A DNA stretch of 62,303 nt, the filler included. It is 7 parts of 7 records of this genome, joined end to end, with 100 filler letters (N's around TTAATTAATTAA, not from the genome) between each part and the next. Parts side by side here need not be neighbours in the genome. Positions count along the whole stretch, not along the records: positions 54,602 to 62,303 come from SRR31156797_62691; 6 more parts are not named here. One strand, written 5' to 3'. The position numbers were made by a program, and so were the translations under genes. Positions within the stretch are counted from its first letter, which is position 1, and every line of letters begins with the position of its first letter. This document shows, one piece after another, positions 5,020-62,303 of this stretch. A model generated the notes under the pieces. That model saw only the letters and a list, made by a program, of their open reading frames with translations, was not told the origin of the DNA and searched no databases.

Positions 5020-5119
5020 NNNNNNNNNNNNNNNNNNNNNNNNNNNNNNNNNNNNNNNNNNNNTTAATTAATTAANNNNNNNNNNNNNNNNNNNNNNNNN
5101 NNNNNNNNNNNNNNNNNNN
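5020..5119. other. Artificial contig spacer (N44-TTAATTAATTAA-N44); also at 10480-10579, 21677-21776, 30638-30737, 47880-47979, 54502-54601
   Basis: Identical 100-nt N-padded all-frame-stop linker six times; composition and gene content change across each. Confidence 0.98.
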
Positions 5120-10479: not shown

Positions 10480-10579
10480 NNNNNNNNNNNNNNNNNNNNN
10501 NNNNNNNNNNNNNNNNNNNNNNNTTAATTAATTAANNNNNNNNNNNNNNNNNNNNNNNNNNNNNNNNNNNNNNNNNNNN

Positions 10580-21676: not shown

Positions 21677-21776
21677 NNNNNNNNNNNNNNNNNNNNNNNN
21701 NNNNNNNNNNNNNNNNNNNNTTAATTAATTAANNNNNNNNNNNNNNNNNNNNNNNNNNNNNNNNNNNNNNNNNNNN

Positions 21777-30637: not shown

Positions 30638-30737
30638 NNNNNNNNNNNNNNNNNNNNNNNNNNNNNNNNNNNNNNNNNNNNTTAATTAATTAANNNNNNN
30701 NNNNNNNNNNNNNNNNNNNNNNNNNNNNNNNNNNNNN

Positions 30738-47879: not shown

Positions 47880-48048
47880 NNNNNNNNNNNNNNNNNNNNN
47901 NNNNNNNNNNNNNNNNNNNNNNNTTAATTAATTAANNNNNNNNNNNNNNNNNNNNNNNNNNNNNNNNNNNNNNNNNNNNTACCGTCAGAAACATTGATTC
48001 GATAGATTGATTTCGCCCAAAAAGGCGGAGAATTAAAATCAATCACGA

Positions 48049-54501: not shown

Positions 54502-54601
54502 NNNNNNNNNNNNNNNNNNNNNNNNNNNNNNNNNNNNNNNNNNNNTTAATTAATTAANNNNNNNNNNNNNNNNNNNNNNNNNNNNNNNNNNNNNNNNNNN
54601 N

Positions 54602-55143
54602 CCACAAATAAAAACCTGGAAGAGATGGTTGAATCCAACCAGTTTCGCCGGGACCTGTTGTTCCGGCTAAACGTGTTTCCAATATTCATACCGCCTTTGA
54701 GAGAACGAAAAGAAGACCTCCCGGCCCTGCTCAGGCATTTTATAATTAAAAAATCTAGAGCATTGAAACTGGCCTCCGTCCCTAAAATCGCTCCCGACTC
54801 AATTGATGGATTGCTGCAATATGACTGGCCCGGAAATGTTCGGGAAATGGAGAACATTATTGAACGCGCTTTAATTACAAATCCCGCCGGTCCGCTCAGG
54901 TTTGACAGCGTTTTTTTTCCCAAAAGAAAAACAACAGCCGGCATTAAGCACGAAGACAGTCAACGACCTCCTACGTTTGATGAAGTGATATGCGATTATA
55001 TCCAAAAGACTTTGCAGGCTACAAACGGTAAAATCCATGGCCCCGGAGGCGCGGCCGAAAGGATGGGCATTAATCCGAGTACGTTAAGAAGCAAGATTAA
55101 AAAGCTCGGTATTGGTTATGACCGAAAAGGCGCCGACAAATAA
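54602..55143 (+). CDS. Sigma-54-dependent (NtrC/FhlA-type) activator, C-terminal part
   Basis: FRRDLLFRLNVFPI..PPLRER, WPGNVREMEN, Fis-like HTH GAAERMGINPSTL. Confidence 0.93.
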
Positions 55144-55246
55144 GGTTAAAACAAGCGAGATGGGTTTTTCAGTTAAAAAGTCCCATCCCGTGTAATGAGC
55201 AGCTATATTAAGTTGCCGGCTAACATGATAAGGCTCCTGACCTCTT

Positions 55247-55885
55247 TTAATTTCCAGACCGGGCGGCCAGATACCTGATAACCTTTAATTCAAATTCCAG
55301 GCTGCTTTCATCCGGCGTATGCACAGGCGTCATGCAGGTCACCATTTGTATATCATCGACATGCACTTTAAAAAAGTCCACGCCTACCTTGCGGCGGATC
55401 TGTCGTTTCAGGTCATTCATCATTTTTTCAGTGCCGTTGCGCACAAAAAGAATGACCGCATTCCCGCTGTTTTCCTCAAAAAAGAGTTCAAGCAGTTTAA
55501 GCCAGATATGGCCTTCAGGTAAATCATGGCGATAATCATGTATCTTGTCGATATTGAAAATATGGTGAGCCAGTTCAAAAAAACAATTCAGTTCCAATTG
55601 TTCCGTTATTTCCATTCCTGCATCTGTAATTAACCTTTTGATATCATCCAATTCGGCAAGACCGCTTGGTTTGACCATCAGGAAAAAAGGAAGAGGTGAT
55701 TGAAGGTCGATAGCAGCCAGATCCGTTAGTGCAATCGGATCAAATTCATAATGCGGCCGATTATCCAGTTCCACTGTTCGAAATCGCCGTAGTACAAACT
55801 CGAGGAAAAACTGTTTGAAAGAGAGGTTAAACAGCCTCCAGACATTCCGCTTTACAATTTTTCGCAGCATGCGCAAGGTCAACAC
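55247..55885 (-). CDS. Divergent nucleoside-diphosphate-kinase-like protein
   Basis: FLMVKPSG resembles NDK IKPDG; LKRQIRRKVG; VHTPDES..E resembles NDK HGSDS..E; overlaps the stop of the upstream gene. Fold assignment is by eye. Confidence 0.6.
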   Translation of the reverse strand: MLTLRMLRKIVKRNVWRLFNLSFKQFFLEFVLRRFRTVELDNRPHYEFDPIALTDLAAIDLQSPLPFFLMVKPSGLAELDDIKRLITDAGMEITEQLELNCFFELAHHIFNIDKIHDYRHDLPEGHIWLKLLELFFEENSGNAVILFVRNGTEKMMNDLKRQIRRKVGVDFFKVHVDDIQMVTCMTPVHTPDESSLEFELKVIRYLAARSGN

Positions 55886-57516
55886 AGAAGACCTTCATTC
55901 ACGCCTTGGGCAAGGTTGTCCGTGTACTGTTCTCGAAACATGCCGCATTCTCCGCTTAAAATCATATCAAGGGCTTGATCAGGTGCATAGGGAGTCCTGT
56001 CATATCGATTTTCAGTGAGCGCTGCATAGGCGTCAGCCAGTCCTACAATTTCCGTCATGGGCCAATTTATGGCCACGCCGTGATATCCCTTGGCATCTAT
56101 GCGTTCGTGATGATGGCGGGCAATTTCACCTTCAACCATGTACCCGGCTTTGTGCAGCAAGTCTCGTCCCAGGCTGGTGTGACGGCGCAAGGCATACTTG
56201 CTGCTTTTGGATAATCCGCTCCTGTGAGCAAGATGTTTAATCTTCGGATGCGCCTTGCCGATATCATGGAGAAATGCGGCCCGCATAAGATAATACACGG
56301 TTAAGAAATGCCATTTCATTAGAAATCCCAGCCGGCCTGCAACAAGGGCCGTTCTGGCAAAGTGCGAAAATAAAAAGTGGTCGGTATTAATGCCAAGGTT
56401 GCTAAATAAGTTTTTAACGCCTTTTTCGTGAATAATATTTTCCAATATGGCGTCAGGACTGGAATAGTTTGTTTCATAAACCCCATCCATGCCCTGTTCC
56501 ACCATTAGATTATATTCCCGCGTGACGTCACAACAATACCGGGAGCAGACATCATCATTCAATGGGTTGTGAGACCTGAACCACTGCCAGATCAAGCGGT
56601 TCTGGCGAGGGTCGTCAACACTGGCGATTGGTTTGCCCCGTTCCCGAATGTAGATGTTACAAGGATATATCTGATTTCCGGCAACAGTTTTTTCGTCCAG
56701 CACCACGTAGCATTTTTGAGCTGCTTTTTGCCGCAGTCCCCGGGTTGAAAAGAAATGACGGGCGCGATAGTTCAAAAAGGGATACCCGCCTTCGGCAATC
56801 TTTTCCAGTTGCGGCTGGATGCGCTCGGCATACAAACGCCTTTCCTTTTGGGAAAAAACGGACTGGGCCACAGGGATCAGCCTGATGTCGTCAGGTTTGA
56901 ACACTTCCAGAAAGTGCGCTACGATTTCAGGAAGCTTTGTGAAATTTTGTTTTGTCACCGCCAGGCAGATGACGATAATAAAAGGAACAGTTTGCTTCAG
57001 CAGGCTCAATCGGGTCAGATTTTCTTTTACCCGGCAATAAATCCCGGGTTTTCGCCCCATGAGATAAGCATCCTCATCGTTTTTCGCATCCAGGGATACA
57101 AACAGGTAGCGTAATCCCGATTTAGCCATTTCCGCATATGTTTCATATGGCGCCAGCCCGTTGGTGCTGATGGAAGTTTCCATGCCGTACTGCCCGGCAA
57201 TTCTAACATACTCAACTATTTCCGGGGACTGGGTTGGTTCAAGCCCTGTCAGGTGGACATATTTCAGGTTGCGCGAACGCCAACGCGAAATCATTCTTTC
57301 AAATTCGGTCAGAGTGGGCGGAAGAATATGCGGTTCAATGCCTTTGCAATAGGTGCAGTGCAGGTCGCATTGATTGGACACGAAGAACACGCTGCGCCCG
57401 TTCAGATCGAAATTCAAATTGGCGGGCGGGGAAATGAATTGTTTCAAAAGCATTTCACCCCGCAGACTGTCCAGTGAATATAGCGTCGGGCTCAGGCGGT
57501 CCAGGGTTTTGTCCAT
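55879..57516 (-). CDS. Radical SAM enzyme fused to a C-terminal HD-GYP-like domain
   Basis: CDLHCTYC, LTGLEP, STNG, VSLD; Cys-rich auxiliary region; HDIGK, HHERIDAKGY, LADAY. Confidence 0.88.
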   Translation of the reverse strand: MDKTLDRLSPTLYSLDSLRGEMLLKQFISPPANLNFDLNGRSVFFVSNQCDLHCTYCKGIEPHILPPTLTEFERMISRWRSRNLKYVHLTGLEPTQSPEIVEYVRIAGQYGMETSISTNGLAPYETYAEMAKSGLRYLFVSLDAKNDEDAYLMGRKPGIYCRVKENLTRLSLLKQTVPFIIVICLAVTKQNFTKLPEIVAHFLEVFKPDDIRLIPVAQSVFSQKERRLYAERIQPQLEKIAEGGYPFLNYRARHFFSTRGLRQKAAQKCYVVLDEKTVAGNQIYPCNIYIRERGKPIASVDDPRQNRLIWQWFRSHNPLNDDVCSRYCCDVTREYNLMVEQGMDGVYETNYSSPDAILENIIHEKGVKNLFSNLGINTDHFLFSHFARTALVAGRLGFLMKWHFLTVYYLMRAAFLHDIGKAHPKIKHLAHRSGLSKSSKYALRRHTSLGRDLLHKAGYMVEGEIARHHHERIDAKGYHGVAINWPMTEIVGLADAYAALTENRYDRTPYAPDQALDMILSGECGMFREQYTDNLAQGVNEGLLC

Positions 57517-57630
57517 TAGGCCATATAATTCCTTTCTTGATTCTTTAAATATAAATCAATAGATGATTGGGGTCGATGTTTTTTTTTCCCTCAATGCAAT
57601 GACCTCCAATTTTTAATTCTTGGGAATGTA

Positions 57631-58185
57631 TTAAGAGTCAACCGGACCGTCGTCACAGGCCGATATAAAAGTCTCGGCTGTAACCACCTGGAACAAAGGG
57701 TATAGAGGGCTGTTTTGATGTGTTTTCAAGGTCGCATCGTGGTAATCCCGGTTAAAGGAGGCGCAACAGTCGGAAATGATGTAAGTCCGAAAATCAAGGG
57801 CCAGGGCGTCAAAGGCCGTGTTCAGGACGCACCAGTGAGTGTTGATGCCGGTAATGGCCACGGCGTCGACGTTGTACAGGTTAAGCGTCTGGTCAAGGTC
57901 GGTCTTGAAAAAAGCGCTGAAACGTCTCTTGGGAAGGTAAATATCCCGATCGCTTTGTTCGATCTGATCCATGACTTCGGCGCCGTTTGTACCGCGTAGA
58001 CAATGTTCCTTCATTTTTCCCCCGAATATGAAATCTCCGGGAAGGAAGCTATCCATGGCGAAAATTACAGGAATGGATAGCTTCCGGGCCTGCCTGGTCA
58101 ACTGGTTAATCGCCGGTGCAATTTCAAGAGAAAATGGTTTGACCGCGTCTTTCAGCATGTCAACAACTATAATTGCCGGTTTCAA
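57631..58185 (-). CDS. Isochorismatase/cysteine hydrolase family protein
   Basis: IIVVDM, HCLRGT, KRRFSAFFKTDLD, GINTHWCV. Confidence 0.92.
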   Translation of the reverse strand: MKPAIIVVDMLKDAVKPFSLEIAPAINQLTRQARKLSIPVIFAMDSFLPGDFIFGGKMKEHCLRGTNGAEVMDQIEQSDRDIYLPKRRFSAFFKTDLDQTLNLYNVDAVAITGINTHWCVLNTAFDALALDFRTYIISDCCASFNRDYHDATLKTHQNSPLYPLFQVVTAETFISACDDGPVDS

Positions 58186-58270
58186 TTCGGTTCACCTTTT
58201 CCTATTTTGTCAGTCCTTAATCGGCAGTTATTCAGATTCGCTCCGGGAGCATAACCTTGGATCATTCGTA

Positions 58271-60187
58271 TCAATCCTGACCCAGATCGAGGGTGTACTC
58301 TGATTTGGGCAGCTTGTAAAGCTTTTCGATTATATCGCCGTACCGTTTTTCAATTGTGGCTTTCTTGACCTTCATGGTCGGCGTTACTTCCTCATCATCC
58401 TGAAAAAGTTCATCCTCGAGAATATAGAACTTTTTTATCTGTTCCACCTGGGCCAGTTCCCCATTCTTTTCCCGGACAATTTCCCAGACCGCTTCGAGGA
58501 TCTGTCTATTCCTGGTCAATGAACGAAAATCCCGGTAAATTATTCTGTTGTCCCTGGCAAAGCGGATCACTTCGTCCTCATCCAGTGTAAATAGACAAAC
58601 CAGGTAAGGCTTGGCTTCGCCGTAAACAATGGCCTGGCTTATAAATCTGTGGGTCTTCAGGATGTTTTCTATGTGCTGGGGTGCGACGTTTTTCCCCGCG
58701 GCTGTAATTAGAATGTGCTTTTTCCTGTCGACAACGGAATAATAGCCCTGGTCGTCGACCTTGCCGACATCGCCTGTTTTCAGCCAGCCGTCATCCGTAA
58801 AAATATTTTTGGAAGCTTCTTCATCCTTATTATAGCCCTTGCAGATAAGCCAGGGTGCATAGACCTGAATCTCGCCGTCTTCGGCCAGCCGGACGTCAAT
58901 ACCGGGGATAGGCTTTCCGACCGTCCCGATTCGGTACTCATCCAAACGGTTGCACATAATGATACTGCTTGTTTCGGTTTGCCCAAACACTTCGATCAAC
59001 GGCATGCCGATTGCCGCGAAAAAGTCCAGAATCCTCGGGGCTATGGGAGCGCCTCCGGTAAGCGGAATTATCATCCTCCCGCCGAACATTTTTTTAATCC
59101 GTCGGTAAACCAACAAATGACAAAGCAAAAAAAGGAATCGAAGATTAAAGGGAACGCTCGCCTCTTTCCGGCGCAGTTCCAATATTTTTGTTCCCAGATC
59201 GAGGGAATACTTTATAAGGCGTTTCCGAAACCAGGGCGCCTCATCAATAGTTCCAATTATCTTGTTATAGATTTTTTCATATAACCGGGGAGTGCAGAAC
59301 ATCCATGTTGGTTCAGTTTCATATATGTCATCCATGGCCGTATTCATCATGTCCTCTGCGACTGCAATGGGGCATCCCGCGGAAATACTGCTGAAAAGGG
59401 TCAGGGTCAAGCCGCCGGCGTGAGCCAGCGGTAGAAAACAAAAGGCGAGATCTTTTTCATTAATCGGAAAAGCCTGTGTAAAGGCCCAACAGCAGAATAA
59501 AGTATTTCCATGAGTGATGATCGCTCCCTTGGCCAGGCCGGTTGTGCCGGATGTATAAATAAGCGCCAGGGGCGTGTCATAATCCGGCCGCAAGGTCCTG
59601 TTTTCTATCTGTTCCAGAGTTTCCGAATTTATGGAGTTGCGGCTTTGTTCCAGGAATTCCTTGAAAAGATAAAACTTGTCGTTATCCGTCTCATCAATTT
59701 TTTCAAACGAGATAATACTTTCCAATGTGGGGCAGGCGCCCTTGATTTCAAGTATTTTGTCGGCTTGTTCCTGTTCCTCGACAAAACAAAATTTGGCATC
59801 CGAGTTATTAATAATATGTTCGCATTGAGACGGGCTGTTGGTGTGATAGATGCAAACCAGCCTGCCGCCGGCCAGAAGTATGCCAAGGCATGCGGATATC
59901 CATTCCACCCGGGTTTTGGAGAATATGGCAATCGAATCTCCGTATTCCATGCCAAGTTCAATCAGGCCCCGGGCAATGGTTTTGGCTTCCCGGTCCATTT
60001 CAATCCAACTGATATCTGTCCAGCGACCGTCTATTTTGGCCGCGGCCATGGCGGAGTCTCCGTATTTTTTAACCTGTGAATCCCACATGGCGCCGACGTT
60101 TTTCCATTTCCGCCAATCAGAGGGGGCCGAAAACTCCTTTGTGTCCTCATGTTGTATATGAACAGCAGCTTGATTGTGAGCCATCAT
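58271..60187 (-). CDS. Long-chain fatty acid-CoA ligase (AMP-dependent synthetase)
   Basis: IYTSGTTGLAKG, FGQTE, WLKTGDVG, DRKKHILITAAGKNVAP, TPTMKVK. Confidence 0.93.
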   Translation of the reverse strand: MMAHNQAAVHIQHEDTKEFSAPSDWRKWKNVGAMWDSQVKKYGDSAMAAAKIDGRWTDISWIEMDREAKTIARGLIELGMEYGDSIAIFSKTRVEWISACLGILLAGGRLVCIYHTNSPSQCEHIINNSDAKFCFVEEQEQADKILEIKGACPTLESIISFEKIDETDNDKFYLFKEFLEQSRNSINSETLEQIENRTLRPDYDTPLALIYTSGTTGLAKGAIITHGNTLFCCWAFTQAFPINEKDLAFCFLPLAHAGGLTLTLFSSISAGCPIAVAEDMMNTAMDDIYETEPTWMFCTPRLYEKIYNKIIGTIDEAPWFRKRLIKYSLDLGTKILELRRKEASVPFNLRFLFLLCHLLVYRRIKKMFGGRMIIPLTGGAPIAPRILDFFAAIGMPLIEVFGQTETSSIIMCNRLDEYRIGTVGKPIPGIDVRLAEDGEIQVYAPWLICKGYNKDEEASKNIFTDDGWLKTGDVGKVDDQGYYSVVDRKKHILITAAGKNVAPQHIENILKTHRFISQAIVYGEAKPYLVCLFTLDEDEVIRFARDNRIIYRDFRSLTRNRQILEAVWEIVREKNGELAQVEQIKKFYILEDELFQDDEEVTPTMKVKKATIEKRYGDIIEKLYKLPKSEYTLDLGQD

Positions 60188-60942
60188 TTCTTAACCTTTA
60201 TTCTGCCTTCCCACAGTTCTTTTCTATTGACGTATTTTCCTTCGCCCAGGTATGCGTTCCTTATTTCTTCATCGGCCAACAAGCTTTCTGACGACCCGTA
60301 TCTCTCAACCCGTCCGTTCTGGATAACATAACCTCTTTGGGCGATTCCCAGCGCCAGGGAAATATTCTGCTCCACCATGGCGATTGTGACCCCCTGATCA
60401 TTGATCAACTTGATCATCTTGATTATTTCCTTGACCAAAAGAGGGGACAGGCCCAGGGATGGTTCATCCAGCAAAAGCAATTTGGGCTCGGACACAAGAG
60501 CCCGTCCAATGGCGACCATCTGTCTTTCTCCACCCGACATATTCTTGGTTTTTTGCTTTTTCCTTGATGCTAAAAATGGAAAAAGATCGTAGACGCTTTC
60601 AATTTTATCATTTATGCCGGATTTGCCCTTTACGGCCGCGGCCCCGGCCTTTAGGTTTTCTTCGACCGTCAGGTCGTCAAAAGTATGTCGACCTTCGGGA
60701 ACGTGCGATATGCCCATCTTGACGATCCTGTGGCTGTCCATGTTTTCGATTCGTTTTGAAAGAAATTCTATTTGGCCGTAATCGACAAGTATGAAGCCGG
60801 AGATCGCTTTGAGTATGGTGCTTTTGCCCGCGCCATTGGAACCGAGTATGGCCACGATCTCCCCTTCGCCGACTTCAAGGGAAATCCCCTGCAGCGCCTT
60901 GACCCGGCCGTAATAGGTTTCGATTCCCTTTAATTTAAGCAT
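60184..60942 (-). CDS. livF: Branched-chain amino acid-type ABC ATPase
   Basis: GSNGAGKST, HVPEGR, MSGGERQM, LDEPSLGLSP, VEQN. Confidence 0.9.
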   Translation of the reverse strand: MLKLKGIETYYGRVKALQGISLEVGEGEIVAILGSNGAGKSTILKAISGFILVDYGQIEFLSKRIENMDSHRIVKMGISHVPEGRHTFDDLTVEENLKAGAAAVKGKSGINDKIESVYDLFPFLASRKKQKTKNMSGGERQMVAIGRALVSEPKLLLLDEPSLGLSPLLVKEIIKMIKLINDQGVTIAMVEQNISLALGIAQRGYVIQNGRVERYGSSESLLADEEIRNAYLGEGKYVNRKELWEGRIKVKK

Positions 60943-61708
60943 TATCGTCTTCTCCCAGGAAAATCCGTAAAACTTCGGGATCGCTTACAACCTCGCCCGG
61001 TTCTCCTATTTTAATGACATTACCGGAATCAAGGACGCATAAACGGTCGCAAATGGACTGGACAAGATTCATATCGTGTTCAACAAGAAGGATAGTACAC
61101 CCCAAATCCTCGCGGATCATCTTGATCAGCCTGGCCGTTTCCCTGGATTCCTGTTCGTTCATACCGGCTGATGGTTCATCGAGCAGCAGTAAATTCGGTT
61201 TGGCCGCCAGTGCGCGGCCGAGTTCGATCAGTTTCTGCAGGCCATATGGCAGATCCGCGACCCTTTTGGAATGAAAACGGGTTATGCCGAGGAAATCGAG
61301 AATTTTAAATGCTTCATTCTTGTCGGTTTCAAAAGCGGCTAAAAGATCCTTGGGGCGGAGGCTGCTAAGATATCGCCTCATTTTCAAACGCGGGTGAAGG
61401 CCCACCATAATGTTGTCAAGTGCCTTGGTATAGTGAAAAAGCTCCAGGTTTTGAAAGGTCCGTGCAATTCCTATCCTGGCAATTTCATGACTGCGCTTGT
61501 CGAGAAGATTCAGTTTATCCTTGTATGTGATACGCCCTCTCTGGGGTTGGTAGAGCCGGTTGACGCAATTAAAAAAAGTGCTTTTCCCCGAGCCGTTAGT
61601 GCCGATCAAGCCGAATATTTCACCCTCTTCAACGGAAAAATTAATTCCGTTTAAAGCGACAAGACCGCGAAAAGACATGAACAAATCATCCACTCGCAGG
61701 ATTTTCAT
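60935..61708 (-). CDS. livG: Branched-chain amino acid-type ABC ATPase
   Basis: GTNGSGKST, GIARTFQN, LPYG, LDEPSAGMN, VEHDM. Confidence 0.9.
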   Translation of the reverse strand: MKILRVDDLFMSFRGLVALNGINFSVEEGEIFGLIGTNGSGKSTFFNCVNRLYQPQRGRITYKDKLNLLDKRSHEIARIGIARTFQNLELFHYTKALDNIMVGLHPRLKMRRYLSSLRPKDLLAAFETDKNEAFKILDFLGITRFHSKRVADLPYGLQKLIELGRALAAKPNLLLLDEPSAGMNEQESRETARLIKMIREDLGCTILLVEHDMNLVQSICDRLCVLDSGNVIKIGEPGEVVSDPEVLRIFLGEDDNA

Positions 61709-61710
61709 AT

Positions 61711-62303
61711 CTACCTCCAGCGATAGATCCAGGCGGCTCGCCCTATTTTCCTATCATTAAAGGGGAAGGCCTTGAAATATCCCTTAATGACGGTCCAGCG
61801 GCCGTAGACTCCGTTTGGTTCAAAAACAATAAAAAAAAGGATCAATAGTCCGAAAATCAAATATTGCAGTATGGCGCCGTCGGCGCCGGCGGGAAGAAAC
61901 GCCTCGCTTAGCAGCGATATCCATTCGGGAAGAAACGTGATTAAAAGCGCCCCGATTACGGCGCCGTAAACAACTCCCATCCCGCCGATAATCAGCATTA
62001 GCAGGTAATTTATCGATATGGTGATGTTTATATCTTCCGGGCTGATCATCCCAATGATGATTCCTGTCAATGCGCCGGAAAGAGAGGCCAAAAAAGAACT
62101 GATGGCAAAAGCAAGCGCCTTGTATAAAAGCAGGTTCACGCCGCTTACTTCCGCGGCGACTTCGCTGTCCCGGATGGATGTAAAGGCTCGGCCCAATTTG
62201 CTATGCAACAGGAACCTGGAAAAAATGACGATCAGAATGACCAGTGTGTAGATAAAGTAATAGAAACCGGTCTCCCCGGAGTTTAACTTAACGAAACCAA
62301 GAT
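61711..62303 (-). CDS. livM: Branched-chain amino acid-type ABC permease, 5'-truncated
   Basis: SKLGRAFTSIRDSEVAA..GVN..YKALAF, IIGGMG..GAVIGA, FEPNGVYGRW. Confidence 0.88.
   Translation of the reverse strand, partial: LGFVKLNSGETGFYYFIYTLVILIVIFSRFLLHSKLGRAFTSIRDSEVAAEVSGVNLLLYKALAFAISSFLASLSGALTGIIIGMISPEDINITISINYLLMLIIGGMGVVYGAVIGALLITFLPEWISLLSEAFLPAGADGAILQYLIFGLLILFFIVFEPNGVYGRWTVIKGYFKAFPFNDRKIGRAAWIYRWR

Follow-up and report, generated by a model that had tools for sequence, protein, structure and literature searches.

We analysed a 62.3-kb window (the whole stretch of DNA under study, 62,303 nucleotides) in which two overlapping genes on the minus strand encode a 545-residue protein and a 212-residue protein (Table 1). 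The larger protein joins a radical S-adenosylmethionine (radical SAM, rSAM) domain to an HD-GYP-type domain and is called the rSAM-HD protein below; the smaller, called p212, has the predicted fold of a nucleoside diphosphate kinase (NDK). The pair had been singled out from its letters alone as a candidate nucleotide-modification system (the sequence-only reading), and we find both open reading frames (ORFs) and their overlap exactly as described there, with the motifs present and invariant in the family. The TGA stop codon of the rSAM-HD gene (55881-55879) overlaps the GTG start codon of the p212 gene at 55885, an arrangement whose sequence suggests translational coupling; in homologous loci the overlap of the two genes is 23 nt.

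The N-terminal part of the rSAM-HD protein is recognised by the Pfam Radical_SAM model (PF04055) at 55.5 bits, above the cut-off of 29.5. In a family alignment of 16 sequences, the cysteines of the CxxxCxxC motif (C50, C54 and C57), the sequence TGLEPT, and C269, C286, C324, C328 and C329 are all invariant. The position of the usual GGE motif is taken by G91-L92-E93, within TGLEPT, in all 16 members of the clade, and the phage and fused relatives described below have GGEPT or GGEAT there. In rSAM enzymes of the SPASM/twitch type, a C-terminal Cys-rich domain, opening with a Cx(9-19)G..PC hairpin, ligates one or more auxiliary Fe-S clusters. In the 545-residue protein, the segment C269-x16-C286 reads 'CYVVLDEKTVAGNQIYPC' and is followed by C324-x3-C328, and these four cysteines are also invariant in a wider alignment that includes phage members. 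Alignments spanning the full length of the NCBIfam PapB (SPASM) models are obtained with three relatives (P0180, P0176 and L026); for the 545-residue protein itself Pfam reports no SPASM domain, and the N_Twi_rSAM model reaches 23.8 bits versus a cut-off of 170. The invariance of both the SAM-cluster cysteines and the presumed auxiliary cysteines argues, at the level of the alignments, for catalysis.

The C-terminal part of the protein exceeds the cut-off of Pfam HD_5 (PF13487; 34.6 bits versus 27.2), and a profile search of the PDB gives V-cGAP3 (5z7c), PA4781 (4r8z) and PmGH (4mcw) as its best solved relatives, with E values of about 1e-14. The ligands H385, H417, D418, H446, H469, H470 and D495 are all invariant in the family alignment, and in a residue-level alignment LHDIGK, H446, HHERxD and D495 fall in register with 4r8z and 5z7c. 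The domain resembles the HD-GYP phosphodiesterases (4mcw, 4r8z and 5z7c) in this HD...H...HHExxD...D pattern and in its HD_5 score, but differs from them in two respects: the GYP motif is GYH here and GYH, GYQ or GYR in homologs, with the Pro absent throughout, and the domain follows an rSAM domain rather than a REC, GAF or PAS sensor.

Searches with the sequence of p212 did not place it in a known family. Pfam returned no family at E ≤0.1, NCBIfam, PADLOC and PHROGs contained none for it, a hidden Markov model (HMM) search of the PDB with a p212 profile gave a chance-level match only, and hhalign against canonical NDK aligned just 12 columns around the IKP motif, with a probability of 1%. Likewise, a search of three host genomes with PF00334 found one canonical ndk gene in each, elsewhere in the genome, and did not report the p212 homolog. 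By contrast, the structural comparisons point in one direction. The AlphaFold2 (AF2) model of p212, built from 11 homologs, has a pLDDT of 91 and a pTM of 0.87, and of its nine Foldseek matches at E ≤0.001, eight are titled nucleoside diphosphate kinase (probability 1.00 for the NDK entries) and one is a radial-spoke chain. Against 48,161 chains, VIA-align placed nine rows at Z 9.8-10.8, with the next row at 7.1; these nine superpose on model residues 62-209 with a root-mean-square deviation of 2.4-3.1 Å over 113-132 residues. Three of them are titled NDK, and the remaining rows are axonemal or RP2 chains, which we take to contain NDK-like domains. The ESM Atlas leads for p212 also tend towards NDK, with scores of 0.85-0.88, under the 0.9 line. 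The NDK-like character first proposed from motifs thus fails by sequence profiles and is confirmed at the level of the modelled fold.

The motifs of p212 (F-x-x-I-K-P-S-G, R164-x3-G168, V-H189-T-x-D, and E199, ten residues past the His) are of the types IKPxG, RxxxG and (V/I)Hxx(D) found in NDK (PF00334), and p212 shares with NDK the fold, an invariant His and a later Glu. His189 lies within 'PVHTPD', on the strand just ahead of the last helix, and from this register of motif and secondary structure it would be the equivalent of the NDK phosphohistidine. Conservation in the wider p212 family (69 sequences) is strong at His189 (67/67), K160 (67/68) and R164 (66/69), with E199 kept in 58 of 65 sequences (the other seven have Gln) and D192 in 53 of 67 (nine more have Glu). 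Unlike NDK, p212 begins with a 60-residue N-terminal extension, carries a conserved insert ('KIHDYRHxLPEG') within its helix-hairpin region, and has a beta-hairpin at the site of the NDK Kpn loop.

Both proteins are very rare. Among 5.8 billion clustered proteins, we found 15 full-length rSAM-HD homologs (one with 94% identity, the others with 50-53%) and two fragments, together with one stand-alone rSAM of 311 residues and 32% identity; all other matches were to the HD domain only. The same proteins yielded nine p212 homologs; for six of these the longest contig has the same length as that of an rSAM-HD homolog, which suggests shared contigs. Scans for related loci returned four from genomes and two from metagenomes, the named genomes being those of Candidatus Vecturithrix, Candidatus Moduliflexus and UASB bacteria of candidate phylum KSB3. 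A p212 homolog stands directly downstream of the rSAM-HD gene in all five related loci that reach past the rSAM gene (the sixth stops inside it). Because the genes are adjacent in five of five loci and distant relatives fuse both domains (see below), the comparisons support the view that the two genes form a conserved functional unit. Pfam analysis of 23 flanking ORFs found no other conserved neighbour and no defence island; the flanking genes include altronate dehydratase, cyclopropane-fatty-acid synthase, AzlCD, lipase, 3-hydroxyacyl-CoA dehydrogenase (3HCDH) and HydEFG.

The p212 gene is present in four of nine species genomes of the phylum of genome G001. Within one genus the downstream order AzlC, lipase, 3HCDH is maintained, which suggests vertical inheritance. 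In one Vecturithrix genome (L004:11610-13001), the p212 homolog runs without a stop into an AzlC domain to give an ORF of 463 residues, which could be a real fusion, a lost stop codon or an assembly error. In a related genome (L001), the p212 homolog ends at 243 residues and a phage-type lysozyme with a peptidoglycan-binding domain separates it from azlC.

The linkage of the two families is seen again, in covalent form, among distant relatives of p212. An HMM search of 1.84 billion proteins with the p212 profile returned 69 clusters at E ≤0.001, and we scanned all 22 clusters longer than 250 residues, plus eight short ones, with Pfam. Seven of the 22 long clusters contain Radical_SAM, with the NDK-like domain N-terminal to it in three and C-terminal in four; other long clusters contain PHP (4), a dCMP/cytidine deaminase (1), PPDK_N plus a PEP-utilizer domain (1) or NTP_transf_5 (1), and a Pfam match is lacking in 8 of the 22 long and all eight short clusters. 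The profile of the window's own rSAM family (A1) matched 10 of 18 proteins tested, no PHP form among them; on the seven fused rSAMs and P0134 it scored 105-246 bits over profile positions of about 30-365, and the alignments include the YPCxIYxRE...CCD(I/V)TR region. Since these scores extend across both the rSAM core and the Cys-rich region, the fused rSAMs appear to belong to the same rSAM subfamily. That distant NDK-like relatives are fused, in either order, to this subfamily is new in this analysis, and the joining of the two families in other lineages is strong evidence, by sequence comparison, that they work together. Judging from these architectures, in which the rSAM and NDK-like domains are paired without HD, the HD domain is an accessory of the HD-fused clade. 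The NDK-like domain, for its part, seems from its domain partners to serve nucleotide enzymes generally as an accessory module.

The NDK-like fusions to domains other than rSAM are P0142, P0177, P0188, P0198, P0159, P0153 and P0165. The fused PHP domain is nearest to the 3',5'-bisphosphate nucleotidase/RNase RNM model, below its cut-off, and the fused dCMP-type deaminase gives a weak match to an anti-phage dCTP deaminase model.

The suggestion of the sequence-only reading that the rSAM family also occurs in phages was borne out: a large sister clade of the rSAM is widespread there, which is likewise new in this analysis. A tblastn search of 50,697 phage records gave four matches, the best of which, in a 735-kb uncultured phage, covers 92% of the rSAM region at 29% identity (E 1e-34), and IMG/VR contains 94 relatives, of which 80 were retained and serve as the denominator for the phage loci below. 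Viral proteins make up 97% of the 979 members in the top ESM Atlas cluster. Most phage rSAM proteins are 311-352 residues long, and they share an N-terminal YxLxDxR, GGEPT, STNG, SLDA, DIRxI..Q and the Cys-rich YPCxIYxRE...C...C. In a midpoint-rooted FastTree of 56 sequences (16 HD-fused, 8 NDK-fused and 2 stand-alone proteins, with 30 phage ORFs drawn at random; topology without support values), the cellular NDK-linked group, made up of the HD-fused clade and both fusion clades, stands apart from the phage group. Neither the 80 phage loci nor the phage collection yielded a p212-like gene.

The phage genes have partners of their own. Downstream of the phage rSAM, a 139-residue mini-GGDEF protein scores 43.4 bits against Pfam GGDEF (cut-off 23.8) and has an intact (G/A)GDEF motif; an HMM built from 16 such sequences detects it in 19/80 loci. 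A conserved 'WFH' domain of ~85 residues (motifs FxWxxWRxGS...CRPKxNxxAVMF...WFHLxxxEF), with no family match, is present in 29/80, either between the rSAM and mini-GGDEF genes or fused to the C terminus of the rSAM. One or the other occurs in 35 of the loci and both in 13. We considered the ~85-residue domain as a relative of p212 or NDK, and hhalign found no relation. Other phage neighbours include RNA ligases, RtcB, glycosyltransferases and homing endonucleases, with a single HD_4 and a single metallophosphatase.

Several individual phage loci deserve mention. In the 735-kb phage (LR756501.1; L010:5494-6960), the 488-residue protein P0130 has a 170-residue domain ahead of the rSAM; this domain matches the phage mini-GGDEF HMM weakly (12.9 bits), has 'SGDEL' in place of GGDEF, and was not confirmed as GGDEF by Pfam at E ≤10 or by the PDB, so that P0130 may be a degenerate GGDEF-rSAM fusion. 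In a 485-kb phage (LR745208.1; L011:5767-6825), the rSAM as called lacks CxxxCxxC and the tblastn match begins at query residue 83, which may mean that the start was misplaced, that the gene is frameshifted or that the copy is degenerate; directly after it comes a GT1-like glycosyltransferase. GIY-YIG/NUMOD3 homing-endonuclease genes lie beside or within the phage rSAM operon (L022:3502-4218, L023:5941-6327, L017:3627-4352 and L078:5651-6505); a related homing-endonuclease cluster is found in nine phage loci, and in L078 the rSAM gene is apparently split by the insertion.

To what known family is the rSAM closest? The 545-residue protein reaches no curated NCBIfam cut-off, nor do six relatives. 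Its best NCBIfam match is a tungsten-enzyme rSAM maturase (56.6 bits versus 380), and the BlsE model gives 51.2 bits versus 400. MoaA (TIGR02666, 47.3 bits versus 284; TIGR02668, 40.7 versus 325) and viperin (NF038283, 41.9 versus 180; relatives 37-74) were both rejected on these scores, in agreement with the sequence-only reading, which had recognised it as neither. The best match in the PADLOC defence library is to the pVip models (52 and 48 bits, rSAM core only), after which come only weak Cas3/Cas10 matches from the HD domain (E 3.5e-4 at best). In a Foldseek search with the AF2 model of the 545-residue protein, the E-values of BlsE, DesII, SkfB, PA4781, viperin and MoaA differ by no more than two orders of magnitude, and tblastn against plasmids gives only MoaA/MftC-level matches, with 0 of 55 records covering at least 80% of the query. 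The rSAM thus sits in the MoaA/SPASM-twitch/viperin neighbourhood and in no single family of it.

MoaA, the GTP 3',8-cyclase, is a twitch-type rSAM with a nucleotide substrate, and it is third among the curated matches; it combines an rSAM core with a C-terminal auxiliary-cluster domain, of which the 545-residue protein has a presumed counterpart, and the MoaA models are the best or near-best NCBIfam match of the phage and fused relatives (65-91 bits). However, the scores of 47-91 bits stay well under the MoaA cut-offs (231-325 bits), Cys spacing and C-terminal motifs are not the same, and there is no molybdopterin gene context. BlsE and DesII, rSAM enzymes that work on nucleoside or nucleotide sugars, are the best Foldseek matches (E 2.5e-7 and 3.6e-6), and BlsE matches by HMM as well, but identity is 14-19% and the model has low confidence in the substrate-side region. 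Viperins are not known to have an auxiliary Fe-S domain, and they carry a viperin-specific C-terminal NTP-binding extension. The likeness to a viperin with its kinase lies in an rSAM coupled or fused to a nucleotide-phosphorylating enzyme and in weak similarity of the rSAM core; unlike viperin, the 545-residue protein has a four-Cys SPASM/twitch-like region and a fused HD-GYP domain, and its partner has an NDK fold, whereas the viperin partner is a P-loop nucleoside monophosphate kinase (CMPK2-type). No defence context was found among the flanking ORFs. A preprint (bioRxiv 10.1101/2023.09.13.557418) reports a nucleotide kinase within three genes for 12% of bacterial viperins, as well as viperin fusions with kinases and with a domain termed 'triphosphatase or cyclase'.

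Another point of comparison, made by description only, is Ophion, an anti-jumbo-phage system that a second preprint (bioRxiv 10.1101/2025.09.30.679545) describes as consisting of the rSAM OpnA, which is 'related to but distinct from' viperin, the PHP protein OpnB and the phosphoribosyltransferase (PRTase) OpnC. As far as that description goes, both systems combine an rSAM with a metal phosphoesterase and an enzyme of nucleotide metabolism, and NDK-like relatives are fused to PHP; the pair described here differs in having an HD-GYP phosphoesterase, in having an NDK fold instead of a PRTase, and in occurring in KSB3-type bacteria and metagenomes rather than in Gammaproteobacteria. Among the flanking ORFs of the related loci, none next to the pair encodes a PRTase or a PHP protein. 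In the literature that we searched, we found no rSAM described as linked to a partner of the NDK-like, HD-GYP or phage GGDEF kind, and the accessible part of a review of jumbo phages (PMC7824862) has nothing on this rSAM family.

The setting of the pair in the window is as follows. The window is a chain of separate contigs, parted by six pairs of 44-N runs (spacers at 5020-5119, 10480-10579, 21677-21776, 30638-30737, 47880-47979 and 54502-54601), and genes on opposite sides of a spacer are therefore not neighbours. The GC content of the blocks spans 0.28 to 0.61, and they possibly derive from different organisms. The pair sits in the last block (54602-62303, GC 0.47), where the minus strand carries LivM/LivG/LivF-like ABC transporter genes, an AMP-binding acyl-CoA synthetase gene and an isochorismatase-family gene, then the pair, after which comes a convergent sigma-54 activator fragment. 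A gap of 114 nt separates the end of the isochorismatase-family hydrolase gene (57631-58185, same strand; Pfam E 8.5e-40) from the rSAM-HD gene downstream of it; the hydrolase gene is probably outside the unit because it is absent beside the pair in the related loci. The gap downstream of the pair is 103 nt, so that neither gap leaves room in the window for a precursor-peptide gene. In promoter and terminator scans, neither kind of site was more frequent than in shuffled sequences. Rfam found no RNA in the upstream gap, none in the window piece at E ≤1, and no riboswitch or other RNA at gathering score in the six related loci.

Table 1. Features of the gene pair and of the related phage operon; positions are those of the window unless a locus is named.
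Feature	Position	Strand	Basis
Gene for the 545-residue rSAM/HD-GYP fusion protein	55879..57516	-	ORF; Pfam Radical_SAM and HD_5/HD above cut-off
Radical SAM core, residues 46-183, with TGLEPT replacing the usual GGE	56968..57381	-	Pfam PF04055, E 1e-14
CxxxCxxC motif C50/C54/C57 (CDLHCTYC), presumed SAM-binding [4Fe-4S] cluster	57346..57369	-	Invariant in 16/16
Cys-rich SPASM/twitch-like region, C269-x16-C286-x37-C324-x3-C328, C329; presumed auxiliary Fe-S site	56530..56712	-	Alignments
HD-GYP-type metal-dependent phosphodiesterase domain, residues 378-519	55960..56385	-	Pfam HD_5, solved relatives
Stop/start overlap, 7 nt, GTGTTGA; GAAGG 6 nt upstream of GTG	55879..55885	-	Sequence read
Gene for the 212-residue NDK-fold protein (p212); NDK-like core 62-209, conserved basic N-terminal extension 1-60	55247..55885	-	ORF, 9 homologs, AF2
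Codon of His189, presumed positional equivalent of the NDK phosphohistidine	55319..55321	-	Conservation, motif register
Upstream intergenic region, 114 nt, with one sigma-70-like match (57576-57548)	57517..57630	-	Promoter scan; candidate only
Phage operon, ~330-residue rSAM + ~85-residue domain + mini-GGDEF	L012-L091, e.g. L027:4995-6923; L019:4989-6671; L044:4995-6251		

Taken together, the parts point to nucleotide chemistry, because the NDK fold has its His, the HD-GYP ligands are intact and the curated or solved enzymes nearest to the rSAM include MoaA, BlsE, DesII and viperin. The best-supported reading, to which we give about an even chance (roughly 50%), is that the two genes form a module of three activities acting on a small-molecule nucleotide. 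In such a module, p212 would transfer phosphate via His189, making or regenerating the nucleoside triphosphate or another phosphorylated form used by the pathway; the rSAM domain would cleave SAM at the CxxxCxxC cluster and carry out radical chemistry on the nucleotide with the help of a four-Cys auxiliary cluster; and the fused HD-GYP-type di- or tri-metal phosphodiesterase would cleave a phosphate ester in either the substrate or the product, a role that PHP may fill in other lineages. The order of these steps, the substrate and product, and the physiological role (a signal, an antiviral nucleotide or a cofactor precursor) are put forward conditionally. Our leading guess for the substrate is a guanine nucleotide or cyclic dinucleotide, because HD-GYP here and GGDEF in phages are two independent links to enzymes of guanine nucleotides or cyclic dinucleotides, and MoaA is the nearest curated family of the relatives. 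The proposal of a nucleotide-modification unit in the sequence-only reading is strengthened by the domain fusions.

Several observations weigh against this module. The domains and residues are known from sequence and models, and the whole of the chemistry is what we infer from them. Sequence profiles do not tie p212 to canonical NDK, and the Lys of the IKP motif (K72) is kept in only 39 of 66 wider relatives, so that kinase activity of p212 cannot be taken for granted. AF2 models the rSAM-HD protein poorly, with a pLDDT of 70 that drops under 50 in the Cys-rich region. The similarity to MoaA, BlsE and viperin is generic, far below cut-offs and about equal to that with SkfB, PqqE and PapB. Finally, the GGDEF linkage is found in only 19 of the 80 phage loci, whose other neighbours are heterogeneous.

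The evidence also bears on other explanations of the pair. A viperin-analogous antiviral defence, in which the NDK-like protein supplies a nucleoside triphosphate, the rSAM makes a toxic or chain-terminating analogue of it and the HD domain trims or detoxifies the product, would parallel the reported viperin-kinase linkage (bioRxiv 10.1101/2023.09.13.557418). Ophion, with its rSAM, PHP and PRTase, is reported to protect against jumbo phages (bioRxiv 10.1101/2025.09.30.679545), and PHP is a domain to which NDK-like relatives are fused. The patchy distribution (four of nine genomes of the phylum), the many phage relatives and the rank of pVip as best PADLOC match fit as well. Yet the viperin model scores 41.9 bits where 180 are required, a presumed auxiliary-cluster domain is present, the pVip matches are weak, PADLOC returns no other defence family beyond the weak Cas3/Cas10 matches and none for p212, and the neighbours in three genomes are metabolic or housekeeping-like and not conserved, with a synteny in one genus that suggests vertical inheritance. 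The viperin-analogous label of the sequence-only reading is not supported by these results, and Pfam showed no defence island among the 23 flanking ORFs; we consider a defence role unlikely. Signalling by cyclic di-GMP or another cyclic dinucleotide, with HD-GYP as the output phosphodiesterase, the rSAM as a redox or SAM sensor or a dinucleotide modifier, and the NDK-like protein converting GDP to GTP, appears to us quite unlikely. The HD domain is indeed nearest to solved c-di-GMP and cGAMP phosphodiesterases with all ligands retained, HD-GYP proteins usually have N-terminal sensors (REC, GAF and PAS appear among the weaker homolog-search matches), and phage rSAM relatives pair with a GGDEF cyclase. 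However, rSAM and NDK-like domains occur together without HD in eight fused relatives, which makes the rSAM the conserved core rather than an accessory sensor, its SAM-cluster and auxiliary cysteines are all invariant, and GYP is altered to GYH/GYQ.

If the rSAM instead made a cofactor or modified-base precursor from GTP in the manner of MoaA or QueE, with a pterin, a deazapurine or a related product, one would understand why MoaA models head the NCBIfam matches of the phage and fused relatives, why moaA genes are the top plasmid tblastn matches, and why there is a presumed twitch-like auxiliary cluster, as in MoaA. This is nevertheless improbable, as the MoaA cut-offs (284-325 bits) are widely missed, no MoaC, MoaB, QueC, QueD or FolE gene lies nearby, and the family is very rare and patchy, unlike a cofactor pathway. 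Least probable among these explanations is a peptide or protein maturase, in which the rSAM would modify a peptide or a partner, possibly p212 itself, and the HD and NDK-fold parts would be scaffolds or unrelated. Its appeal lies in the maturase at the head of the NCBIfam matches, in further matches to SkfB, PqqE, mycofactocin and sactipeptide maturases, and in the end-to-end PapB (SPASM) alignments with relatives; but all the matches fall far below cut-offs, a precursor gene would not fit into the two gaps (114 and 103 nt), conservation of gene order does not extend past the pair, and the partner is an NDK fold with conserved His, Arg and Glu that is elsewhere fused to PHP, deaminase, PPDK-type and nucleotidyltransferase domains, which are nucleotide enzymes.

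A bolder version of the three-activity module, which we regard as doubtful and offer tentatively, would unite the cellular and phage branches. The rSAM would then represent an unrecognised twitch-type family acting on guanine nucleotides or cyclic dinucleotides, which makes or destroys a radical-modified (perhaps cyclic) nucleotide in the conflict between phage and host; in cells the enzyme would be hard-wired to an NDK-fold phosphotransferase and to HD-GYP or PHP, and in phages it would act with the mini-GGDEF and the ~85-residue domain. If this were true, such a nucleotide, used as a signal or a weapon, would constitute a class of second messenger or antiviral so far undescribed.

Nucleotide-modifying rSAMs, such as viperin with its product ddhCTP (3'-deoxy-3',4'-didehydro-CTP), MoaA and QueE, have repeatedly opened new biology. 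The subfamily described here has no curated model and is tied to a previously unrecognised NDK-fold family and to phosphoesterases, and the unit is small and self-contained and is thus directly testable. If the product is a new nucleotide, the pair would represent a new branch of nucleotide-based signalling or immunity, and roughly a thousand phage genes (those of the 979-member ESM Atlas cluster) would gain a function.

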